Positions 1-37,023 of a DNA stretch of 64,000 bases are shown here, piece after piece. Within the stretch, counting starts at the first letter, position 1. The number at the start of each line of letters is the position of its first letter. The notes under the pieces are model-generated. The model did not search any database, was not told the origin of the DNA, and worked only from the letters and a program-made list of their open reading frames with translations. The position numbers and the translations under genes are program-made. Source of the DNA: Planctomycetota bacterium (GTDB taxonomy: Bacteria; Planctomycetota; MHYJ01; WSZJ01); assembly GCA_038060895.1 (NCBI GenBank), contig JBBTCT010000018.1, positions 46,928 through 110,927 on the forward strand, read 5' to 3'.

Positions 1-1054
1 ACCGAAGCGAGTCCCTCCGCGCGATCAGCTCCTTGAGGTCGATGAGCAGGTCCTGCAGCCACAGGCAAGCGCGCCGCCCCACCGTCGTCACCTGCGCGGG
101 CTGAAAGTGCGTGAAACCGAGGCAGGGAGTGTTCTTCCACTTCGCCGCAAAGTCCGCGAGCGCCCGGCATGCCCTCGCCACCTTCGGAATCAGCAGCCCC
201 AGCGCTTCCCGCATCACGATCAGGTCCGTGTTGTCCACCACGAACATGCTCGTCGCGCCCAGGTGGATGATCCCCGCCGCGCCCGGCGCCTGCTCGCCGT
301 AATGGCGGATGTGCGCCATCACGTCGTGCCGCGTCTCGCGTTCGATCTCCGAAGCCCGGCTCGCGTCCACACGGTCGCGCGCCGACTTCAGCTCGCCGAT
401 CTGCGTCTCCGTGATCGGCAGTCCCAGCTCCTTCTCCGCCTCCGCCAGCGCAATCCAAAGGTCGCGCCACGTCGTAAACCGCTTCCTGTCCCCGAAGAGC
501 TCGATCATCCTCCGCCCCGCATACCGCTGAGTCAGCGGGTTCACCCAGTCCGTCGCCGTCCCTCCCGGGGTGACGTTGCGCGGCACCGCGGGAAGGGGAG
601 TGAGCGGCCGCGATGACGACGGCCGCACCCCACGACGTACTTCGGCCTTGTCGTAATCCTGCGGCCCGTTTGCAGGCGCCACGGGCGGCGGCCGGTCCTT
701 CCTGCGGAACGAACGCGTCGCTTCGTCCCGGCTCTTGTACCGCTTCAGGAAATCGTTCAGCCCCAGCGTGTCGAACTGCGCCTGGACCCGCGTCCCAACC
801 TGCACCAGCGCGACCGACCCGCCCGCCGTTTCGTTCTCGTCCGTAAACGTCACGAGCATCGCAATCCCTACGCTCGCCACGAAATCCACCGCTTCCATGT
901 CGATCACGAAATCCCGCATCCCGCCGCGCCTCAGGTTTTCCAGCGCTTCCTGCAGAAGCGGAGTCCCCGACTGGTCGATTTTCCCGCGGAGCACGATGAG
1001 CCGCGCGTTCGAGTCCTCCGGGAGCCTCGAGACGGCGATATCGAGCTCGCTCAC
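1..1054 (-). CDS. purB: STAS domain-adenylosuccinate lyase fusion (3' end runs off window)
   Basis: Manual translation from GTG 1054 has no stop: MSELDIAVSRL...DMEAVDFVASVG... (STAS), Pro/Ser/Arg linker, then WVNPLTQRY...RHDVMAH...IIHLGATS...CLGFTHFQPAQVTTVGRR (PurB motifs). Start overlaps the upstream stop (GTGA). Confidence 0.88.
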   Translation of the reverse strand, partial: MSELDIAVSRLPEDSNARLIVLRGKIDQSGTPLLQEALENLRRGGMRDFVIDMEAVDFVASVGIAMLVTFTDENETAGGSVALVQVGTRVQAQFDTLGLNDFLKRYKSRDEATRSFRRKDRPPPVAPANGPQDYDKAEVRRGVRPSSSRPLTPLPAVPRNVTPGGTATDWVNPLTQRYAGRRMIELFGDRKRFTTWRDLWIALAEAEKELGLPITETQIGELKSARDRVDASRASEIERETRHDVMAHIRHYGEQAPGAAGIIHLGATSMFVVDNTDLIVMREALGLLIPKVARACRALADFAAKWKNTPCLGFTHFQPAQVTTVGRRACLWLQDLLIDLKELIARRDSLR

Positions 1055-2892: not shown

Positions 2893-3013
2893 AGCGCGCG
2901 TGAACCTTGCGAGCGACGGCGAGCGGTCGGGGCTCGCGGCACGGCGTCGAGCCTTTCCGACGCCGGGCCGCGAGGTCCGACCGCCGACGGCGTTCGCAAG
3001 GTTCACGCGCGCT
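2893..3013. repeat. long intergenic hairpin (20-bp perfect outer arms, loop AGCCTTTC)
   Basis: agcgcgcgtgaaccttgcga ... tcgcaaggttcacgcgcgct, paired almost throughout; core similar to 59801-59889. Confidence 0.9.
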
Positions 3014-4077
3014 CACCACTTGATCGCGACTTCGCGCTTGCCCCGCTTGACGGTGCCTACGATGGCGGCGGTCTCGCCGGATTCCTGCAGCCGGCGGACG
3101 ACGGCCTTCGCGTAGTACGGATCGACGATCATGACCAGTCCCAGGCCCATGTTGAAGACGCGGACCATTTCGTCGTCCGGGATGCCGCCCTTCTCCTGCA
3201 GGAAGCTGAAAATGCGCGGGACGGGGATTTCGCCGATCTTGATTTCGACGTCCACGTCCGGAGGAATCACGCGCGGGACATTTTCCACGATCCCGCCGCC
3301 CGTGATGTGAGCGATTGCTTTCACCACCTTCTTTGTCCGGTAGGGCGCAAGCACGTGTTTCATGGACCGGACGTAAATCCGGGTCGGCGTCAGCAGTTCC
3401 TCGCCGAGCGTGCCGCGGAGCCCTTCGATCCGGTCCTCGAGCTTCAACCCCGCTTTTTCGAGAAGGACCTTGCGCACGAGGGTGAAGCCGTTCGAGTGAA
3501 GCCCGCTCGACCCGACGCCGATCACCGCGTCGCCGACGCAGACCGATTTCCCGTCGATGATCCGGTCGCGTTCCACGATTCCCGTGCAGAATCCGCCCAT
3601 CTCGTATTCGCCTGTCCCATAGTCGTCAGGGTGCTGCGCCGTCTCGCCGCCGAGCAGAACACAGTCCGACAATTCGCAGCCGCGAACCAGGCCCTTCACC
3701 ACGTCCAGCATCAGCGCCTCGTCCATTGGCCCGACGGCAATGTAGTCGAGGAAGAACAGCGGCTCGGCACCGGAGACGATGAGGTCGTTCACGCTCATGG
3801 CGACCAGGTCGATCCCGACCGTGTCGTGCTTCCCGGTGGCCTGCGCGATCTTCAGTTTCGTTCCGACTCCGTCCGCGCAACCGACCAGGACGGGGTCCTT
3901 GTATTGCTTCTTGAAGAGGTTCGCGGGGCCGTTCAGGGCGAAGAAGCCGGCGTACCCCCAGTCGTTCTGGATGACGCGCGGGTTGTAAGTGCGGCGCATG
4001 AGGCCGAAGAGTTTGTCGATGAAGCGGTCTTTGGCGACCGTATCGACGCCGGCGTCCTTGTAGGTCATGCGCGCCAT
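3013..4077 (-). CDS. purM: phosphoribosylformylglycinamidine cyclo-ligase (AIR synthase)
   Basis: TYKDAGVD, DGVGTK, GGETA, SSGLHSNG, HITGGG, FNMG motifs. Confidence 0.97.
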   Translation of the reverse strand: MARMTYKDAGVDTVAKDRFIDKLFGLMRRTYNPRVIQNDWGYAGFFALNGPANLFKKQYKDPVLVGCADGVGTKLKIAQATGKHDTVGIDLVAMSVNDLIVSGAEPLFFLDYIAVGPMDEALMLDVVKGLVRGCELSDCVLLGGETAQHPDDYGTGEYEMGGFCTGIVERDRIIDGKSVCVGDAVIGVGSSGLHSNGFTLVRKVLLEKAGLKLEDRIEGLRGTLGEELLTPTRIYVRSMKHVLAPYRTKKVVKAIAHITGGGIVENVPRVIPPDVDVEIKIGEIPVPRIFSFLQEKGGIPDDEMVRVFNMGLGLVMIVDPYYAKAVVRRLQESGETAAIVGTVKRGKREVAIKW

Positions 4078-29447: not shown

Positions 29448-31595
29448 ATGGCCGCTTCCACCCGAACTTCGCTGGCGCTCAAGGGAATGACCTGCGCGAG
29501 TTGCGTGGGGCGCGTCCAGACTGCGCTGGCGGCGGTCCCCGGGGTGTCCCGTGCGAACGTCAATCTGGCGACGGAGCGCGCCACGGTCGAGTCGGAGGGC
29601 GTCGATCCGGTCGCGCTGGTTGCGGCGGTGCGTGGCGCCGGGTACGAGGCGTCGCTGGTCGAAACGGGGGCGCCTCCGGCCGCGGCGGAGGCTGCGCGCG
29701 GCGACCTCCGTCTGCCGGTCGCGCTCGCTGGAGCGGCCGCGCTGATGGCGCTCTCGATGGACGAGATGTTCCTCGGCCACGGACGCCATTTCGTTCCCGA
29801 CCCTCCACTCCGGTGGATCCTGCTCGCGATCGCCACTCCGGTCCAGCTGTGGTGCGGTTGGCCCTTCCTGCGCGGCGCCATCGCCTCGGCCAGGCACTTC
29901 GCCGCCGACATGAACACGCTCGTCGCGGTGGGCACCTGGTCGTCGTTCCTCGTCTCGTTCGCGGCGGCGCTCGGCCACGGCCATGGTTTTTATTTCGAAA
30001 CCGGCGCGACGATCATCGCGCTGATCCTGCTCGGGCGAACGCTCGAACACCGTGCCCGGCGGCGCGCCGGAGCGGCGATCCGCAAGCTCATGGAACTGCG
30101 GCCCGCGACGGCGCGCGTCGTCGTCGCGGGGACGGAATCGGAGGTGCCCGTCGAGCGGGTCCGCGCCGGAGACCTCGTGCGCGTCCGCCCTGGCGAGCGG
30201 CTCGCCGTGGACGGCGAGGTCGTCGAGGGCGAGTCGCCGATCGACGAATCCATGGTCACCGGCGAATCCATGCCCGTCACCCGTCGCCCCGGCGACCCCG
30301 TCACCGGCGGCACCGTCAACGGAAGCGGCTCGCTGCTCTTCAAGGCCACGCGCGTCGGCGGCGAAACCCTGCTCGCGCAGATCGTCCGCGCGGTCGAGGA
30401 GGCGCAGACGCGCAAGGCGCCGGTCGAGCGGTTGGCCGACCGGGCTGCGGGCGTCTTCGTGCCCTTCGTTCTCATCGCCGCCGCCGTGACTTTCGCCGGC
30501 TGGTGGATCGCGAAGAACGACCCCGCCGCCGGTTTTCTCCCGGCCGTCGCGGTCCTCGTCATTGCATGCCCCTGTGCTCTGGGCCTGGCAACGCCGACCG
30601 CGGTGATGGCCGGCATCGGCCGCGGCGCGGAAAAAGGGATTCTCATCCGGGGCGGGGAAGCGCTGGAAGTCGCGCACAAACTGAGGACGATCGTCTTCGA
30701 CAAGACGGGCACGCTCACCGAGGGCCGCCCCGAGGTCGTTGACGTCCTGACGCTCAGTCCAGACTTCCTCCCACTCGCGCTCGCCGCAGAAAAGCGCAGC
30801 GAGCACCCGCTTGCCCGCGCCATCGTCCGCTTCTCAGAAAAGAAAACATCGGGCTCCCCCGAGCCCGACGATTTCTTCTCGTACTCGGGAAGCGGTGTCG
30901 AAGCGACCCTCCAGGGACGCACCGTCGTCGTGGGCTCGCCGGAATTCCTCGCCGGCCGTGGAATCGACGTCGCCCCCGCCGGGACGTTCGTGATGCGGAA
31001 CCGCGTCGAGGGGCGCACCGTCGTGGCGGCAGCCATGGAAGAGCGCCTGCTCGGCGCCTTCGCCGTCGCCGACCCCGTCCGCCCCGCCGCCCGCGAAGCC
31101 GTAGATTCCCTCAAGCGCCGCGGACTTGCCGTCGTCATGCTCACCGGCGACAACGCCGTCACAGCAGAATCCGTCGCAAAGGCCGCCGGCATCGACCGCG
31201 TCGTCGCCCAGGTCCTCCCGAAGGAAAAGGCCGCGAAGATCACGGAGCTCCAGTCCGCCGGCCCTGTCGCCATGGTCGGCGACGGCATCAACGACGCCCC
31301 CGCCCTCGCCACCGCCGACGTCGGCATCGCGATGGGCACCGGGACGGACATCGCGGCCGAAGCGGGACACATCGTGCTGGTGCGGGGCGACATCCGCGAC
31401 GTGGAGACGGCCATCAACCTGAGCGCGCGCACCCTGCGCACCATCCGCCAGAACCTGTTCTGGGCGTTCTTCTACAACCTCGTGCTCATTCCCGCCGCGG
31501 CGCTCGGCTGGCTCAACCCGATGCTCGCGGCGCTTGCAATGGCGTTCTCGAGCGTGAGCGTGGTGATGAATTCGCTGAGGTTGAGGCGGGCTTAG
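29448..31595 (+). CDS. copA: Cu(I)-exporting P1B-type ATPase
   Basis: GMTCASC, TGES, CPC, DKTGT, SEHP, GDGINDAP, YN and MAFSS. Confidence 0.93.
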   Translation: MAASTRTSLALKGMTCASCVGRVQTALAAVPGVSRANVNLATERATVESEGVDPVALVAAVRGAGYEASLVETGAPPAAAEAARGDLRLPVALAGAAALMALSMDEMFLGHGRHFVPDPPLRWILLAIATPVQLWCGWPFLRGAIASARHFAADMNTLVAVGTWSSFLVSFAAALGHGHGFYFETGATIIALILLGRTLEHRARRRAGAAIRKLMELRPATARVVVAGTESEVPVERVRAGDLVRVRPGERLAVDGEVVEGESPIDESMVTGESMPVTRRPGDPVTGGTVNGSGSLLFKATRVGGETLLAQIVRAVEEAQTRKAPVERLADRAAGVFVPFVLIAAAVTFAGWWIAKNDPAAGFLPAVAVLVIACPCALGLATPTAVMAGIGRGAEKGILIRGGEALEVAHKLRTIVFDKTGTLTEGRPEVVDVLTLSPDFLPLALAAEKRSEHPLARAIVRFSEKKTSGSPEPDDFFSYSGSGVEATLQGRTVVVGSPEFLAGRGIDVAPAGTFVMRNRVEGRTVVAAAMEERLLGAFAVADPVRPAAREAVDSLKRRGLAVVMLTGDNAVTAESVAKAAGIDRVVAQVLPKEKAAKITELQSAGPVAMVGDGINDAPALATADVGIAMGTGTDIAAEAGHIVLVRGDIRDVETAINLSARTLRTIRQNLFWAFFYNLVLIPAAALGWLNPMLAALAMAFSSVSVVMNSLRLRRA

Positions 31596-33027: not shown

Positions 33028-34491
33028 ATGATCAAAGTCTCTTCCACCAAGCGCCTCGACCGCACCGACGTCCTCATTCTCTTTGCCGAGGAGCCGTCGT
33101 CGAAGGACGTCAGGGCGCTTCACAAGTGGGACGCGCTCTCCGGGGATTCGAGCCGGCGGCTGGCCGCGGCGCTCGAGAAGGAGAATTTCCGGGGCAAGGT
33201 GGGGCAGACTTTCGTGTGGCACGCGGGGGACTCCCGCGCGGAGCGCGTCATCGTCGCGGGCGTCGGAAAGGCGGCGACGCGCGACGTGGACCTGACGATC
33301 AGGGCGGCCGGCGCGGCGGCGAAGAAGGCGAAGGAGATCGGTGCCACGAAGGTGATGTGCGCGCTTCCGCCGGCAGGCAAGCTCGGCGAGGAACGCAACG
33401 CGCAGGCGGTGACGGAAGGGCTGATCCTGGGCGCGTACGAGTTCGACAAGTACCGGCAGCCGAAGGAGACGAAGGCGTTTGAGGCGGCCGAGATTCTCGG
33501 CGCGCCGGAGCGGGCGGTGAAGCTCGCGGAGATTTTTTCGCGCGCGACCGTTTACGCGCGGGATCTCGTGAATACGCCGGCCGGCGACTGCGCGCCGCGG
33601 CATCTTGCGGAAGCCGCGAAGCGGCTGGCCGGGTCGAACGTGAAGGTGACGGTGTGGGGGCAGAAGGAGATCGAGAAAAAGGGGATGGGCGGGCTGATCG
33701 GGATCGGGAAAGGCTCGGACGAGCCGTATCACTTCATCATGCTGAAGTGGGAGGGGAAGAAGGGCTCGAAGAAGGTCGCGATTCTCGGGAAGGGGATTAC
33801 GTTTGATTCGGGCGGGCTGTGCATCAAGCCGGCGGACGGGATGGGGACGATGAAGTGCGACATGAGCGGCGCGGCGGCGGTGCTGGCGATGTTCAGCGCG
33901 CTGCCGGACCTGAAGCCGGACTGCACGGTGTACGGCTACATTCCCGCGGCGGAGAACATGACGGGCGGGAGCGCGGTGAAGACGGGCGACGTCCTGCGCA
34001 CGGCGAGCGGGCGGACGATCGAGGTGAACAACACCGACGCCGAAGGGCGCGTCGTCCTTGCCGACGCGATGGTCATCGCGCGCGAGGACAAGCCTGACGA
34101 GATGATCGATCTCGCGACGCTCACGGGCGCCTGCGTCGTCGCGCTGGGCGACCAGGTCGCCGGCATGTTCTCCAACGACGACAACCTCGCCGCCGGCCTC
34201 GACGCCGCTTCCAAGCGCGCCGGCGAGCGTCTCTGGCGGATGCCGATCGTCGCCGAATACCGCGACCTCCTCCGGTCCGACATCGCCGACATCAAGAATT
34301 CCGGCGGCCGCGGCGGCGGCGCGATCCAAGGGGCGCTCTTCCTGCAGGAATGGGCGGGGGACCAGCCTTGGGCGCACCTGGACATCGCGGGGCCGGCGTG
34401 GACTGACAAGGGGATGTCCTTCTGCCAGCCGGGAGGGACCGGGTTCGGGGTGCGGACGTTGCTTGAGTACGTGACGGCGCAAGGAAAGTAG
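33028..34491 (+). CDS. pepA: leucyl aminopeptidase (M17)
   Basis: GKGITFDSGG, MKCDMSGAA, NTDAEGR, HLDIAG. Confidence 0.96.
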   Translation: MIKVSSTKRLDRTDVLILFAEEPSSKDVRALHKWDALSGDSSRRLAAALEKENFRGKVGQTFVWHAGDSRAERVIVAGVGKAATRDVDLTIRAAGAAAKKAKEIGATKVMCALPPAGKLGEERNAQAVTEGLILGAYEFDKYRQPKETKAFEAAEILGAPERAVKLAEIFSRATVYARDLVNTPAGDCAPRHLAEAAKRLAGSNVKVTVWGQKEIEKKGMGGLIGIGKGSDEPYHFIMLKWEGKKGSKKVAILGKGITFDSGGLCIKPADGMGTMKCDMSGAAAVLAMFSALPDLKPDCTVYGYIPAAENMTGGSAVKTGDVLRTASGRTIEVNNTDAEGRVVLADAMVIAREDKPDEMIDLATLTGACVVALGDQVAGMFSNDDNLAAGLDAASKRAGERLWRMPIVAEYRDLLRSDIADIKNSGGRGGGAIQGALFLQEWAGDQPWAHLDIAGPAWTDKGMSFCQPGGTGFGVRTLLEYVTAQGK

Positions 34492-34547
34492 GGAGTGAGG
34501 AGTGTTGAGGGTTGAGCAGGGAGCAGGGAGGAGTCGGGAGATTTGAG

Positions 34548-34796
34548 ATGACCGCGATCTCTGAACTTGGACCATCGCTTGTGATCGGGGCTACCTTTAC
34601 GGCCTTCTCCGCCGTGAAGTTCTATGGCCTCGCCCGCGGCATCGAGGGCGGAGGCGGCAAGCCGCTTCAGACGCGCCTCTGCGGATCCTGACCGACCTGG
34701 CCGTCGTGGGCGCGGTTCGCGGCCCCGGTCGTGATGCTGGCCATCGGGCTGGCTAACTTCGGCTACGCCATCGCCGTCCTGTCGCGCAGCTCGTGA
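34548..34796 (+). CDS. candidate small membrane selenoprotein (CxxU), 82 aa
   Basis: GGGAG RBS; MTAISELGPSLVIGATFTAFSAVKFYGLARGIEGGGGKPLQTRLCGS-TGA(34689)-PTWPSWARFAAPVVMLAIGLANFGYAIAVLSRSS; GC3-rich codons on both sides of the TGA; hairpin 3' of the TGA. Confidence 0.7.
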
Positions 34797-34799
34797 GAC

Positions 34800-36005
34800 T
34801 TAGCAGGCGCAGATTCCTCCGAACATGGAGGGGCCGCGCCTTCTCGACCGCATTCGCTGCGCGTAGCGTGAAAGTGTCAGTGCGCGGGATTTGCGTGGCG
34901 AAATCGGCGCGAGGCGGGCGACGATGAGGCACGCGATGCAGGCGAGGAAGAGCGTGCCGGCGGCAATGGCGAGAGTCCGGAGGGCGGATACGGTCCAAGG
35001 GTCGAGGCGCGGAGGCCTTGCCGGATTGGATCGCGGCGGCTCGGGCCGCGGCTCGGCCGCAATCAGCTCGGCCTCGCCGATCGGAAGTTCCGCGAAGTCC
35101 CCCGCCGCGGCCCGCGAGATCCCGCACCTCCTGCACTCCGCCAGGACTTCCGCAATGCCTGGCTCCCGTCCTTCGAGCACCAGCCTCCATTCGACTCGCT
35201 GAAACCCGGTGCGCCACCTTTCCGCTGTCGAAACATTGCGCCGGATGGCGGCCATCGCCGCGTCAATACTCGCTTCCGCACGCCCCGAACCCACGCGCCA
35301 GAGGAAAAACGTCGTCTCGAGGCGCCTGCTCAGTTCGCTCTTCGCCGGGTGACCGAGGTCGAGCGCCCGGACCCAGGCCCAGATCGCCAGGTTCTGAGCG
35401 CCCCGGCGGCTGAGTTCGTCGCCCAGGACGAGCATGGCGTCGGGGAAGCGCGGGCAGCGGGTGGCGAGCAGGAGGAGGCGGAAGTAATCGACGCGGGGCC
35501 CGGCGCCCGGCGTTGGCCAGGTCGAGTACGGCTCGTCCAGAAAGCCGATGTTCCGCTGAGAAGCGCTCCACCGCAGCGCCCGAAGATGAAAATCGCCGAG
35601 GCCCGGGCAGACGTCCTGGTTGCGCAGAAGCGCCGCCGACAGCGATTCGGCGGCGCTCAGGAATCCGCCCGCGCGCTCCCGCAGGTCCGCAAGAAGCGCC
35701 GCGGCGCCGGCGTTTCCTGGGTCGAGCTGTTCGATCGAGGCGAGTACGGTGCCAGCCTCGCCGTCGCGTCCCAGCGCCGCCCGGGCTTCCGCGAGAAACA
35801 GCCGCGTCGGCAAATCCATAATGTTCGACCGGAGCCTTGTGTCCAAACGGACTTCCCGAAGCGTCCAGTATGTCTCGCCGTGCGAGGGAACCTGACCCGA
35901 GACCAGGTCGAACACGTCTTCCGGCTCCGCAGCCGCCGATGGCGGGCAGGCCCGGGAAAACGAACCGGACAGAATCGTGGCAAGCAGGGCGAGCCGAATC
36001 GTCAT
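34800..36005 (-). CDS. exported TPR-like protein with C-terminal TM helix
   Basis: Signal peptide, TPR-like helices (PDAMLVLGDEL...NLAIWAWVRALDLGHP). Confidence 0.7.
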   Translation of the reverse strand: MTIRLALLATILSGSFSRACPPSAAAEPEDVFDLVSGQVPSHGETYWTLREVRLDTRLRSNIMDLPTRLFLAEARAALGRDGEAGTVLASIEQLDPGNAGAAALLADLRERAGGFLSAAESLSAALLRNQDVCPGLGDFHLRALRWSASQRNIGFLDEPYSTWPTPGAGPRVDYFRLLLLATRCPRFPDAMLVLGDELSRRGAQNLAIWAWVRALDLGHPAKSELSRRLETTFFLWRVGSGRAEASIDAAMAAIRRNVSTAERWRTGFQRVEWRLVLEGREPGIAEVLAECRRCGISRAAAGDFAELPIGEAELIAAEPRPEPPRSNPARPPRLDPWTVSALRTLAIAAGTLFLACIACLIVARLAPISPRKSRALTLSRYAQRMRSRRRGPSMFGGICAC

Positions 36006-36128
36006 TCCTGTGCGAACGAAAGCCCGGGTGCGCGGTTCAGCTCTTCCGCGTGAGGATCATCTCGACGAACCGCAACGCGCGCTTCCCACCTCTTGCGGGA
36101 ATTCAGGCATCCAGCATCTCCCGAAACA

Positions 36129-36344
36129 TCACTTCCGGACCGCGGCCAGTCCCATGTCGAGGAGCGTCTGCTTTCCCTTACCGCCGCAGCCGTTGCAGCG
36201 AAGGTCGACGACTTCGCCTATTTTCACGCCGGCGATGCCGTGGCACCGCTCGCAGGTGCGGAGCGGGACGAAAATCGCCGCGGCCAGGAGGCCCGCCCCG
36301 GCCAGGACAAACAGGAAGCGGCTTCCGCCTTTTTTGCTGCTCAT
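36129..36344 (-). CDS. small membrane-anchored DnaJ-type zinc-finger protein
   Basis: TM helix then CERCHG...CNGCGGKG. Confidence 0.7.
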   Translation of the reverse strand: MSSKKGGSRFLFVLAGAGLLAAAIFVPLRTCERCHGIAGVKIGEVVDLRCNGCGGKGKQTLLDMGLAAVRK

Positions 36345-36390
36345 GCGCCCCATCCTACCGCCGCCGGGGGGCGGGTACAATCCGCGCCCC

Positions 36391-37023
36391 GTGCCATCCT
36401 TCCTGTCCCTCTGCGTCTTCGCGCGCCGCCCCGAGCGCGGCAAGGTCAAGACGCGCCTTGCCGCCGAGATCGGGGAGGAGGCGGCGCTGGAGGCGTATCG
36501 CGACTGCCTGCGGGCGACCTCGGCCCGGGTGGCGGAAGCGGCGCCGCAAGGGGCGCAGCGGGGGCCCTTCGTGTTCGGGACGCCGGACGGGTGCTCGGTG
36601 GACCTGGCGGCGTACTTCCCGCGATGGAGCGCGTTCATGGATCAGGGGGACGGCGACCTGGGCGAACGGATGGCGCGTGCTTTCCGGAGGCTGTCACCGG
36701 CGGTGCTGGTGGGGACGGACTCGCCTGACCTGCCGCTGGAGTATTTTGAACGCGCGTTCAAGGATCTGGAGACGCACGATGTCGTGATTGGTCCCGCGGA
36801 AGACGGCGGTTACGTGCTGATCGGGATGCGGGAACCGCGCGAAGAGCTTTTCCGGGGGGTGCCGTGGTCGTCGCCGGACACGCTGAAGGTGACGCTGGAG
36901 AAGGCGAAGGGACTGAAAGTATCGCTCCTGCCGGCGTGGTATGACGTGGACACGAAAGCCGGCCTCGAGAGGTGGAGAGGTCGCCCCATCGTCCCGGCTG
37001 GCCCGAAAACGAAAAAGGCATGA
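36391..37023 (+). CDS. DUF2064/TIGR04282-type transferase
   Basis: GKVKTRL, QGDGDLGERM, GTDSPDL, GPAEDGGYVLIG, DVDT. Confidence 0.9.
   Translation: MPSFLSLCVFARRPERGKVKTRLAAEIGEEAALEAYRDCLRATSARVAEAAPQGAQRGPFVFGTPDGCSVDLAAYFPRWSAFMDQGDGDLGERMARAFRRLSPAVLVGTDSPDLPLEYFERAFKDLETHDVVIGPAEDGGYVLIGMREPREELFRGVPWSSPDTLKVTLEKAKGLKVSLLPAWYDVDTKAGLERWRGRPIVPAGPKTKKA

Follow-up and report, generated by a model that had tools for sequence, protein, structure and literature searches.

Introduction

Cysteine (Cys) is the usual counterpart of selenocysteine (Sec) in the homologues of selenoproteins, and in E. coli fdhF the SECIS is a hairpin that lies immediately 3' of the UGA and carries a small apical loop. 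MerF and MerE are small transporters of mercury (Hg). A 2026 review lists 119 prokaryotic selenoprotein families in its Table 1, all of them with a Pfam, NCBIfam, cd or PTHR identifier, and few of the listed families are membrane proteins; the same text gives as the bacterial SECIS consensus a small apical loop, 16-37 nt from the UGA, with G and then often G/U in its first two positions (PMC13188914). Among the entries of that table are the CxxU selenoproteins (SelW-like, AhpD-like and DUF1858) and a putative MerT-like selenoprotein (PF02411, C/SxxU). New selenoprotein families from the deep-Sep paper (PMC12013277) now have NCBIfam identifiers.

The DNA analysed here, referred to below as the window, is a stretch of 64,000 nucleotides from the draft genome (G000; 47 contigs, 86.5% complete) of a member of the Planctomycetota, and the locus under study is a short frame, interrupted by one TGA, that follows pepA. 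The genome has one copy of PSD1 (PF07587), a number that is uninformative as to its phylum. We note that it resembles the CxxU selenoproteins, as these appear in Table 1 of the review (PMC13188914), in having a UGA at a conserved redox-type Cys position for which Cys-forms exist, a coding-region hairpin directly 3' of the UGA with an early G in its loop, and sel genes in the genome. Whereas the SelW-like and AhpD-like proteins are soluble and have a thioredoxin-like or AhpD-like fold, the window protein is predicted to be an all-helical, two-pass membrane protein. In this respect it is closer to the MerT-like selenoprotein, which according to the same table (PMC13188914) is likewise a small membrane protein with a Cys/Sec pair at the membrane, and to the YgaP-like transmembrane domain (PF11127, formerly DUF2892), which has about 65-80 residues, two transmembrane helices and a conserved Cys beside a small residue or Pro. 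Everything that can be tested for a bacterial SECIS/SelB-dependent selenoprotein was found for this gene, namely an aligned UGA, a frame that continues beyond it, a stem-loop and the machinery.

A reading frame with an internal TGA downstream of pepA

The pepA gene (33028-34491; Peptidase_M17) is separated by a 56-nt spacer from an ATG (34548-34550) that opens the frame, and the features that we assign to it are collected in Table 1. Translated with TGA as U, the product has 82 residues, MTAISELGPSLVIGATFTAFSAVKFYGLARGIEGGGGKPLQTRLCGS-U-PTWPSWARFAAPVVMLAIGLANFGYAIAVLSRSS, and codon 48 stands in the context ...QTRLCGS-U-PTWPSW..., between two hydrophobic helices. The purine-rich region upstream is made up of GGAGGAG (34527-34533) and GGGAG (34536-34540) and ends 7 nt before the ATG. 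The GC content at third codon positions (GC3) is 0.74 in the first half of the frame and 0.97 in the second, compared with 0.59 and 0.61 in the two other frames (and 0.90 in pepA), so both halves carry the third-position GC bias of real genes. The preliminary description of this locus had claimed a frame led by a ribosome-binding site and containing a single internal TGA after pepA, with host-like codon usage and one hydrophobic helix in each half, and had taken TGA to be an ordinary stop elsewhere in the window; the coordinates, the frame, the purine-rich run, the codon usage, the helices and the use of TGA as a stop all proved to be as described.

Table 1. Features of the locus, in positions of the window
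Feature	Coordinates	Strand	Basis
Purine-rich, putative ribosome-binding region, GGAGGAG ... GGGAG	34527..34540	+	Read directly from the sequence
Whole gene, probable selenoprotein	34548..34796	+	82 codons and stop; homologues span both halves
Predicted transmembrane helix 1, residues 4-29, with invariant K24 and G27	34557..34634	+	AlphaFold2 helix 4-29; hydrophobic window 11-29
Basic loop, residues 30-52: GG motif, short helix 40-45, C45-G-S-U48-P-T-W51	34635..34703	+	Predicted cytoplasmic
UGA probably read as Sec, residue 48	34689..34691	+	Aligns with the invariant Cys of Cys-form homologues
SECIS-like hairpin region	34699..34725	+	Window folds; family hairpin and frozen synonymous sites
Predicted transmembrane helix 2, residues 53-81, with invariant G67; overlaps the SECIS-like region	34704..34790	+	AlphaFold2, hydropathy, conservation
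True stop codon, TGA	34794..34796	+	Homologues stop at the equivalent place with TGA, TAG or TAA

In the public protein sets the gene product is present only as a truncated protein of 47 aa (P0104), and a homologue search of these sets with the product gave five matches, none of them named. On comparative sequence evidence we consider it very probable that the gene after pepA is a genuine, unannotated selenoprotein gene whose in-frame TGA encodes Sec, and this degree of confidence applies to the selenoprotein gene and not to its function. It is the comparative evidence, and not the fold energy of the window itself, that lifts the feature above chance.

Conservation of the TGA and of the sequence beyond it

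A six-frame protein search that read through stops, made in 61 genomes (G000 and 60 relatives), gave strong matches in five of them (E 1.8e-49 to 1.6e-14), the remaining rows being noise-like (E ≥ 0.002). Each of the five contains exactly one in-frame TGA, and each alignment covers both sides of it. When a profile of the five copies was run against 401 genomes of the phylum, six strong matches were obtained (E ≤ 1.7e-20), again with one TGA each; a weak row (E 7e-4, two TGAs) was dropped on inspection. The carriers of the Sec form are eight genomes (G000, G001, G007, G008, G010, G078, G092 and G176), which span several families and include one of low GC content (G092). In all eight copies the TGA is kept at this codon, within [RKQ][LI]-C-G-[ST]-TGA-P-[TDS]-W, and a second hydrophobic helix follows. 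The first ~20 codons have been lost from the copy of G007, which is joined at that point to a truncated pepA; either this copy is decaying or the assembly is chimeric here. The distribution is patchy, with the gene found in 5/56 genomes of the class and 3/8 of the genus; genomes without a match are 81-94% complete, and we therefore read them as genomes in which the gene was not found, not as genomes from which it is absent. The classes around G078 and G176 yielded no further carriers among the genomes searched (1/4 and 1/18, respectively).

The metagenome DNA was searched with a pattern that required GG at codons -14/-13 and then [LI]-C-G-[ST]-TGA-P-x-W, with nothing fixed beyond the W codon. 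This pattern forces the motif, and the sample is thus silent on members that lack CG[ST]-TGA-P-x-W. It matched 95 metagenome stretches, 80 of which were fetched; the family is encoded before and after the TGA in 78 of these, the other two (L128 and L133) being chance matches to the motif. Frames are broken in 8/78 loci, comprising six contigs of one lineage with the same N-terminal damage, L109, which has an extra G in a G-run, and L139, which has an odd N-terminus. The remaining 70 loci provide 62 distinct full-length proteins of 73-129 residues, 12 of these being long forms of 122-129 aa in which there is a third hydrophobic segment. At codons +10 to +25 the residues are kept (P, L and G are each present in 58/59 sequences) while the codons vary freely among synonyms, with an entropy of 1.3-2.2 bits, and this argues for protein-level selection past the UGA.

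Cysteine homologues and invariant residues

A profile search of 1.84 billion representative proteins gave 96 matches at E ≤ 0.001, of which 37 were at E ≤ 1e-10, and the 96 representatives were sorted by script and by eye. At least 37 of these are full length with Cys at the Sec column, and ~5 more are Cys-type variants that fall outside the regular expression used for classification. Another 38 (43-113 residues long) stop exactly at ...[CV]G[ST], the residue preceding the UGA, and one further representative (P0094) ends ...FGT. Four representatives look frameshifted, and P0072 is a repetitive false match. A locus search with a Cys-type pattern (5-sequence alignment) produced one true Cys-form, L064, from a Planctomycetota MAG, together with four short chance-like matches. 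The preliminary description had expected that homologues of a true selenoprotein would keep TGA or have Cys at this codon and would be conserved past it, and the genome copies, the metagenome loci and the database proteins bear this out on each count.

In an alignment of 65 sequences the only invariant columns are K24, G27, C/U48, P49 and G67, and the same columns are invariant in a 29-sequence alignment. Since the C/U48 column is invariant across alignments, Sec would occupy the one indispensable Cys position of the family. A true selenoprotein is usually recognised by Sec at just such an indispensable Cys column. C45 varies: a number of Cys-forms are without it or have a Cys six residues upstream instead, but in most members, the window protein included, Sec has as its partner a Cys at three residues' distance on the upstream side (CxxU).

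A conserved hairpin immediately after the UGA

The 57 nt from the UGA onward were aligned for 75 distinct sequences from 86 loci. The majority share a six-pair hairpin, AGCCGC-[A/G]GU[C/U]U-GCGGCU, with loops (AGUCU, GGUCU, AGUUU or GGUGC) that start 26 nt from the U of the UGA, and across the family the loops ([A/G]GU[C/U]U, GGUUC, GGUCC and similar) begin 22-26 nt from that U. Divergent members have differing stems at an equal distance, their loops containing GGU or GU; for instance, the stem is GACGACC-GUU-GGUCGUC in G176, AUGC-AGGUCG-GCAU in the low-GC genome G092 and GAGCCGC-UGGCU-GCGGCUC in G078, all in the same place after the UGA. As a stem-loop 3' of the UGA, with a loop start within 16-37 nt and an early G, the family hairpin has the properties of a SECIS. 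It shares with the fdhF SECIS and with the bacterial consensus of the review (PMC13188914) a G and then G/U in the first loop positions, but differs from both in its stem, which is specific to the family (AGCCGC/GCGGCU) and is replaced by another GC-rich stem in the subclade of the window.

Over the 75 sequences the hairpin is paired in 94.4% of 444 cells, compared with 21.5-49.3% when the partners are slid by 1-3 columns, and the observed percentage is reached by 7/500 shuffles. Double changes are present in four pairs, a number reached by 0/500 shuffles, and involve 6/444 cells. Owing to the near-invariance of the stem, the score for covariation is modest (0.128 against 0.114). The only Cys-form for which DNA was read, L064, is without the hairpin, and as a member of a different subgroup it is an imperfect control. 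An Rfam scan of 34400-34900 at E ≤ 10 returned three chance rows and no SECIS family. On the coding side of this region, some of the conservation of the nucleotides could be due to the conserved peptide S-R-S-L-R-L, which would not, however, account for the freezing of synonymous sites.

For these sites we compared the 59 sequences with the shared peptide P-x-W-x-S-R-x-L-R. Ser at codon +5 is written AGC in 47 cases and AGT in four, and never TCN; Arg at +6 is CGC in 59/59 and Ser at +7 is AGT in 43/43; Leu at +8 is CTG in 40 and TTG in 13, and Arg at +9 is CGG in 58/59. The codon entropy amounts to 0-0.8 bits at +5 to +9, and to 1.4-2.2 bits for the Arg, Ser, Leu and Gly codons elsewhere in the genes. 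Synonymous choice is frozen only at the codons of the stem, a pattern in the aligned sequences that indicates RNA-level selection limited to the stem.

The copy in the window belongs to a small subclade (G000, G007 and the metagenome locus L084) that is marked by the peptide PTWPSWAR and by a GC-rich stem of its own, and here three overlapping hairpin registers are possible. Register A is the core of the minimum free energy (MFE) fold, with the loop GCG at nt 24-26 (34712-34714); in L010, L011 and L084, respectively, it forms 9/9, 7/9 and 7/9 pairs, at -10.5, -3.8 and -3.9 kcal/mol. Register B, which is consistent with the family, consists of GGGCGC / GCG(G)CCC around the loop GGUUC at nt 26-30 (34714-34718), so that 34708-34713 pair with 34719-34721 and 34723-34725 and G34722 is bulged; in the same three loci it forms 6/6, 6/6 and 5/6 pairs (-8.6, -8.6 and -3.2 kcal/mol). 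Register C, with the loop UGGG at nt 19-22, is the hairpin that the preliminary description had put forward as the SECIS. It can indeed form, with 7/7 pairs in L010 (-6.2 kcal/mol), but it is the weakest of the three registers and retains 5/7 and 4/7 pairs in the two closest relatives, L011 (-1.5 kcal/mol) and L084 (+0.7 kcal/mol). The 52 nt after the UGA have an MFE of -20.7 kcal/mol (z +0.67), and 152/200 dinucleotide shuffles fold equally well or better; the fold being no better than that of shuffles, the case for a SECIS in the window is built on position, loop content and analogy with the family. By that analogy the SECIS of the window is more likely the overlapping hairpin with the loop GGUUC (register B) or the MFE register A, with B favoured and then A.

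Selenocysteine machinery and probable decoding of the UGA

The genome of the window encodes SelA (448.7 bits), SelB (310.7 bits, or 344.3 with its neighbours in frame) and SelD (364 bits), and has a tRNA-Sec (71.7 bits vs a cut-off of 47), all four being above their curated cut-offs; the Sec machinery, the presence of which the preliminary description had left as a check on its proposal, is thus in place. Its selD provides an internal control, as this gene has an in-frame TGA of its own (SSCAG-U-ASK) followed by a GG-loop hairpin, GGUCC-GGC-GGACC. SelA was found in 8/8 genomes that carry the Sec form, a co-occurrence that discriminates weakly, since SelA was found in 290/401 genomes of the phylum. 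SelA was not found in G434, a 4.4-Mb MAG (completeness not given) with a Cys form.

We propose that the gene would be decoded via the SelB/SECIS route to yield an 82-residue, two-pass inner-membrane selenoprotein. On arrival of the ribosome at UGA-48, the hairpin in the following ~40 nt of the mRNA would recruit SelB with Sec-tRNA(Sec), and Sec would be inserted at this codon in place of termination. The residue would thereby be placed at the invariant [C/U]-P-x-W Cys site, within the compact basic loop that leads into transmembrane helix 2, and the recoding hairpin would also encode the start of that helix.

Alternatively, the UGA might be translated as something other than Sec, either by near-cognate read-through (Trp, Cys or Arg) or through a lineage-specific reassignment. 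Such a reading could call upon the database homologues that have R (three representatives), W (one) or G (one) at the Sec position (P0020, P0028, P0031, P0045 and P0057), by codons one base away from TGA. We regard it as very unlikely, given that the residue aligned with the UGA in homologues is Cys, that the genome combines a complete Sec machinery with a Sec-type selD, and that immediately behind the codon the RNA is under selection for a hairpin with the loop and spacing of a bacterial SECIS, as the review describes them (PMC13188914). A reassignment is also opposed by the use of TGA as a normal stop nearby, where it terminates a Pfam-supported DUF2064 gene (35977-37023) as well as the selenoprotein gene itself.

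That same ordinary use of TGA in the genome could be turned into an argument that the TGA of codon 48 is a real stop, in which case the product would be a 47-residue single-helix peptide and the conserved 3' sequence would be a separate short ORF or an RNA/terminator region. The gene callers agree with this, as seen in the 47 aa of P0104 and in the 38/96 representatives that end there. Yet the full-length homologues with Cys at the TGA column continue into the same second helix, the post-TGA residues are kept in frame with synonymous change free, and the junction offers neither a start codon nor a ribosome-binding site for a second ORF; with the TGA aligned, in addition, to the only invariant Cys of the family, we hold a genuine termination at this codon to be extremely unlikely.

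An independent contig from run X8, a run not flagged as a possible source of the assembly, covers 34615-34765 across the TGA with 0 differences, so the codon is TGA there and not the TGC or TGT that the preliminary description had named as evidence against its reading. The draft state of the assembly (47 contigs, 86.5% complete), the 5'-truncated copy of G007 and the broken frames of 8/78 family loci could raise the suspicion that a gene for a CxxC membrane protein is decaying here into a pseudogene, or that the metagenome-assembled genome contains an error of assembly or sequencing. Either has a negligible probability when the same TGA recurs in eight genomes, 78 metagenome loci and the X8 contig, and purifying selection acts on a frame that is otherwise intact.

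Relation to described families

In Pfam and NCBIfam release 20.0 no family scored above its cut-off for the product or for 20 of its Cys-form relatives, and the only Pfam row for the product at E ≤ 10 was DUF5822 (E 0.32, below cut-off). The [C/U]-P-x-W family, as we designate it, is absent from Table 1 of the review with its 119 families (PMC13188914), of which all but the five with cd/PTHR identifiers were covered by these scans. The NCBIfam identifiers of the deep-Sep families (PMC12013277) gave no match to the product. A search of the full-text literature on membrane and CxxU selenoproteins, on the motif strings, on SECIS elements in Planctomycetota and on the soil selenoproteome, its scope being the papers without their supplements, returned no description. 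The statement of the preliminary description that this is not a described selenoprotein family thus holds for Pfam, NCBIfam and the 119-family inventory (PMC13188914). We are confident that the gene founds, or belongs to, an undescribed family of small membrane selenoproteins within the known SECIS-decoded CxxU class.

The resemblance to PF11127 does not extend to the sequence, as none of the five carriers among the 13 genomes searched (G000, G001, G007, G008 and G010) showed a six-frame match to this domain at the locus; the two true PF11127 proteins of G008 differ in that their Cys comes after helix 2, in an unrelated motif.

Membrane topology and possible function

An AlphaFold2 model of the protein (mean pLDDT 88.3, pTM 0.67) has helices at residues 4-29, 40-45 and 53-81, and the Kyte-Doolittle hydrophobic windows (11-29 and 57-80) agree with the two long ones. 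In the model Sec is located just before helix 2 and after the short helix 40-45, and a bridge connects residues 33 and 47. The mean numbers of K+R and D+E residues (n=65) are 3.83 and 1.17 in the loop, 0.69 and 1.25 in the N-terminal tail, and 0.77 and 0.18 in the C-terminal tail. From the basic charge of the loop, and by the positive-inside rule, we infer that the CxxU loop probably faces the cytoplasm, with both termini directed outward.

A search of the PDB with Foldseek gave no match at E ≤ 0.001. The best rows were KcsA chains (E 0.9-5, TM-score 0.44), and this structural match, not being significant, led us to set aside a KcsA-like two-TM pore-loop protein. We likewise set aside a CxxC/CxxU oxidoreductase of thioredoxin fold, as the model is all-helical and no Pfam or NCBIfam match was found. 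In the ESM Atlas a natural Cys-form (P0010) hit unnamed clusters only, with scores ≤ 0.85, and we treat these hits as leads only.

Pfam searches of 113 ORFs around the eight genome copies identified no neighbour conserved beyond the genus or close kin, and when the ORFs around the 78 metagenome loci were clustered and 133/263 representative ORFs searched with Pfam, no partner recurred outside close relatives. Linkage to pepA is confined to the genus and one near-identical metagenome contig (L084), and only in G008 and L074 is a Thioredox_DsbH gene adjacent. P-type ATPases found nearby are of differing subtypes, a heavy-metal P-type ATPase 3 kb upstream being present only in the source genus. 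With gene neighbours conserved at most within the genus, our proposals on function are drawn from motif and topology.

From these we infer that residue 48 may act as a membrane-tethered selenol/thiol centre. We give about an even chance to its being a thiol/selenol redox centre that would cycle through a Sec48-Cys45 selenenyl-sulfide. A second and more tentative possibility is a site for the binding or hand-over of soft metals or metalloids (Hg, Cu, As or Se) of the MerT/MerF type, for which the MerT-like selenoprotein is a plausible model. A MerT protein proper was rejected, neither PF02411 nor any other mer family matching at E ≤ 10 and none matching in the 20 Cys-form relatives, and the mer systems differ also in their motif and in the order of their helices; no mer or metal operon is consistently nearby here. 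Some other function of Sec48 seems to us rather unlikely.

At a still lower level of probability, and as frank speculation, the family might represent a new minimal class of integral-membrane selenoenzymes, in which putative two-helix oligomers would hold selenols at the boundary of lipid and cytoplasm, positioned by the re-entrant short helix and the C-G-[ST]-U-P loop. If so, the selenols could reduce lipid hydroperoxides or quinone-derived oxidants, and would then constitute a bacterial membrane counterpart of GPx4-type chemistry. Alternatively, within the same speculation, the selenols might form the lining of a passage for soft metals or chalcogens, for instance Hg, Cu or selenide. The succession of TM1, short helix, loop and TM2, and the weak KcsA-like rows, would be compatible with such a class.

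Significance and occurrence

The [C/U]-P-x-W family is small, membrane-embedded and without a known domain, and is common in metagenome contigs (95 pattern matches). About 40% of its sequence clusters (38/96) are at present meaningless public stubs that end at the UGA, and recognition of the family corrects their annotation. The family is also a new and well-sampled training case, with a very clean hairpin, for gene finders and SECIS models. Its recognition singles out, in a protein family otherwise uncharacterised, one invariant residue as the site of chemical activity, and provides a tractable 9 kDa model for the role of a selenol at the bacterial membrane.

The word "soil" is absent from the text of the review (PMC13188914), and the family is widespread in soil and groundwater. 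No RNA run is among the listed sequencing runs that contain the window stretch; the stretch occurs in 11 DNA runs from five studies, from groundwater or an aquifer where the source is labelled. Among the Cys-forms of the database, one (P0021) is fused to a histidine-phosphatase domain.

Sec-type SelD of the same genome

The genome that carries the selenoprotein gene supplies its own example of UGA recoding. Its selD, on contig C2 and outside the window, has an in-frame TGA, and reading of the sequence at this locus revealed a GGUCC-GGC-GGACC hairpin 3' of that codon. SelD of this bacterium is of the Sec type, and selD, with its TGA and hairpin, acts as a positive control within the genome for the recoding of UGA.

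Features in the neighbourhood of the selenoprotein gene, and selD
Feature	Location	Strand	Remarks
selD with in-frame TGA	contig C2:48628-49548 (locus L055)		outside the window; context SSCAG-U-ASK
Heavy-metal P-type ATPase	window 29448-31595	+	HMA + E1-E2_ATPase + Hydrolase; also at L058 in genus-mate G001
401-aa ORF	window 34800-36005	-	convergent to the selenoprotein gene; without Pfam match

Gene neighbourhood

The convergent ORF ends 4 nt past the selenoprotein stop codon, so close that a terminator could hardly fit in between. Two genes separate the P-type ATPase gene, 3 kb upstream, from the selenoprotein gene, an arrangement kept only within the genus (the window and G001). ATPases near two metagenome copies of the selenoprotein gene cluster with that of the window; as the one scanned (L093) is of a different subtype, we claim no functional link between ATPase and selenoprotein. 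In two related loci (L060, from another genome of the phylum, G008, and L074) a divergent Thioredox_DsbH (DUF255) gene adjoins the selenoprotein gene, and no such gene was found beside it at the other loci looked at.

Variant, damaged and joined copies

Five database homologues carry another residue exactly at the Sec position: Arg in P0020, P0028 and P0031, Trp in P0045 and Gly in P0057. Each of the corresponding codons is one base from TGA, and these proteins could be point mutants of the Sec-form, products of sequencing error or gene calls that assumed a different genetic code. The 62 distinct Sec-form proteins include 12 long forms of 122-129 aa (loci L077, L081, L082, L091, L094, L095, L097, L107, L119, L138, L148 and L150), each with three hydrophobic segments and a C-terminal tail that is basic. 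In the Cys-form homologue P0021 (269 aa), a histidine-phosphatase domain (His_Phos_1, PRK06193-like) is joined to the C-terminus; the fusion could be real or a gene-calling merge.

Six metagenome contigs (L089, L090, L101, L131, L132 and L153) share damage to the N-terminal half, with a shortened helix 1 and an altered frame, and retain the CGT-U-PTW motif, the hairpin and helix 2; repetitive sequence follows the gene in each. This copy may have been pseudogenised within one lineage. Finally, in the genus-mate G007 (contig C259, about 2970-3350; L011/L057) pepA lacks its 3' end and the selenoprotein gene its first ~20 codons, and the two genes are joined, as a result of a deletion or of chimeric assembly; the remainder of the selenoprotein gene is intact, with its TGA present.
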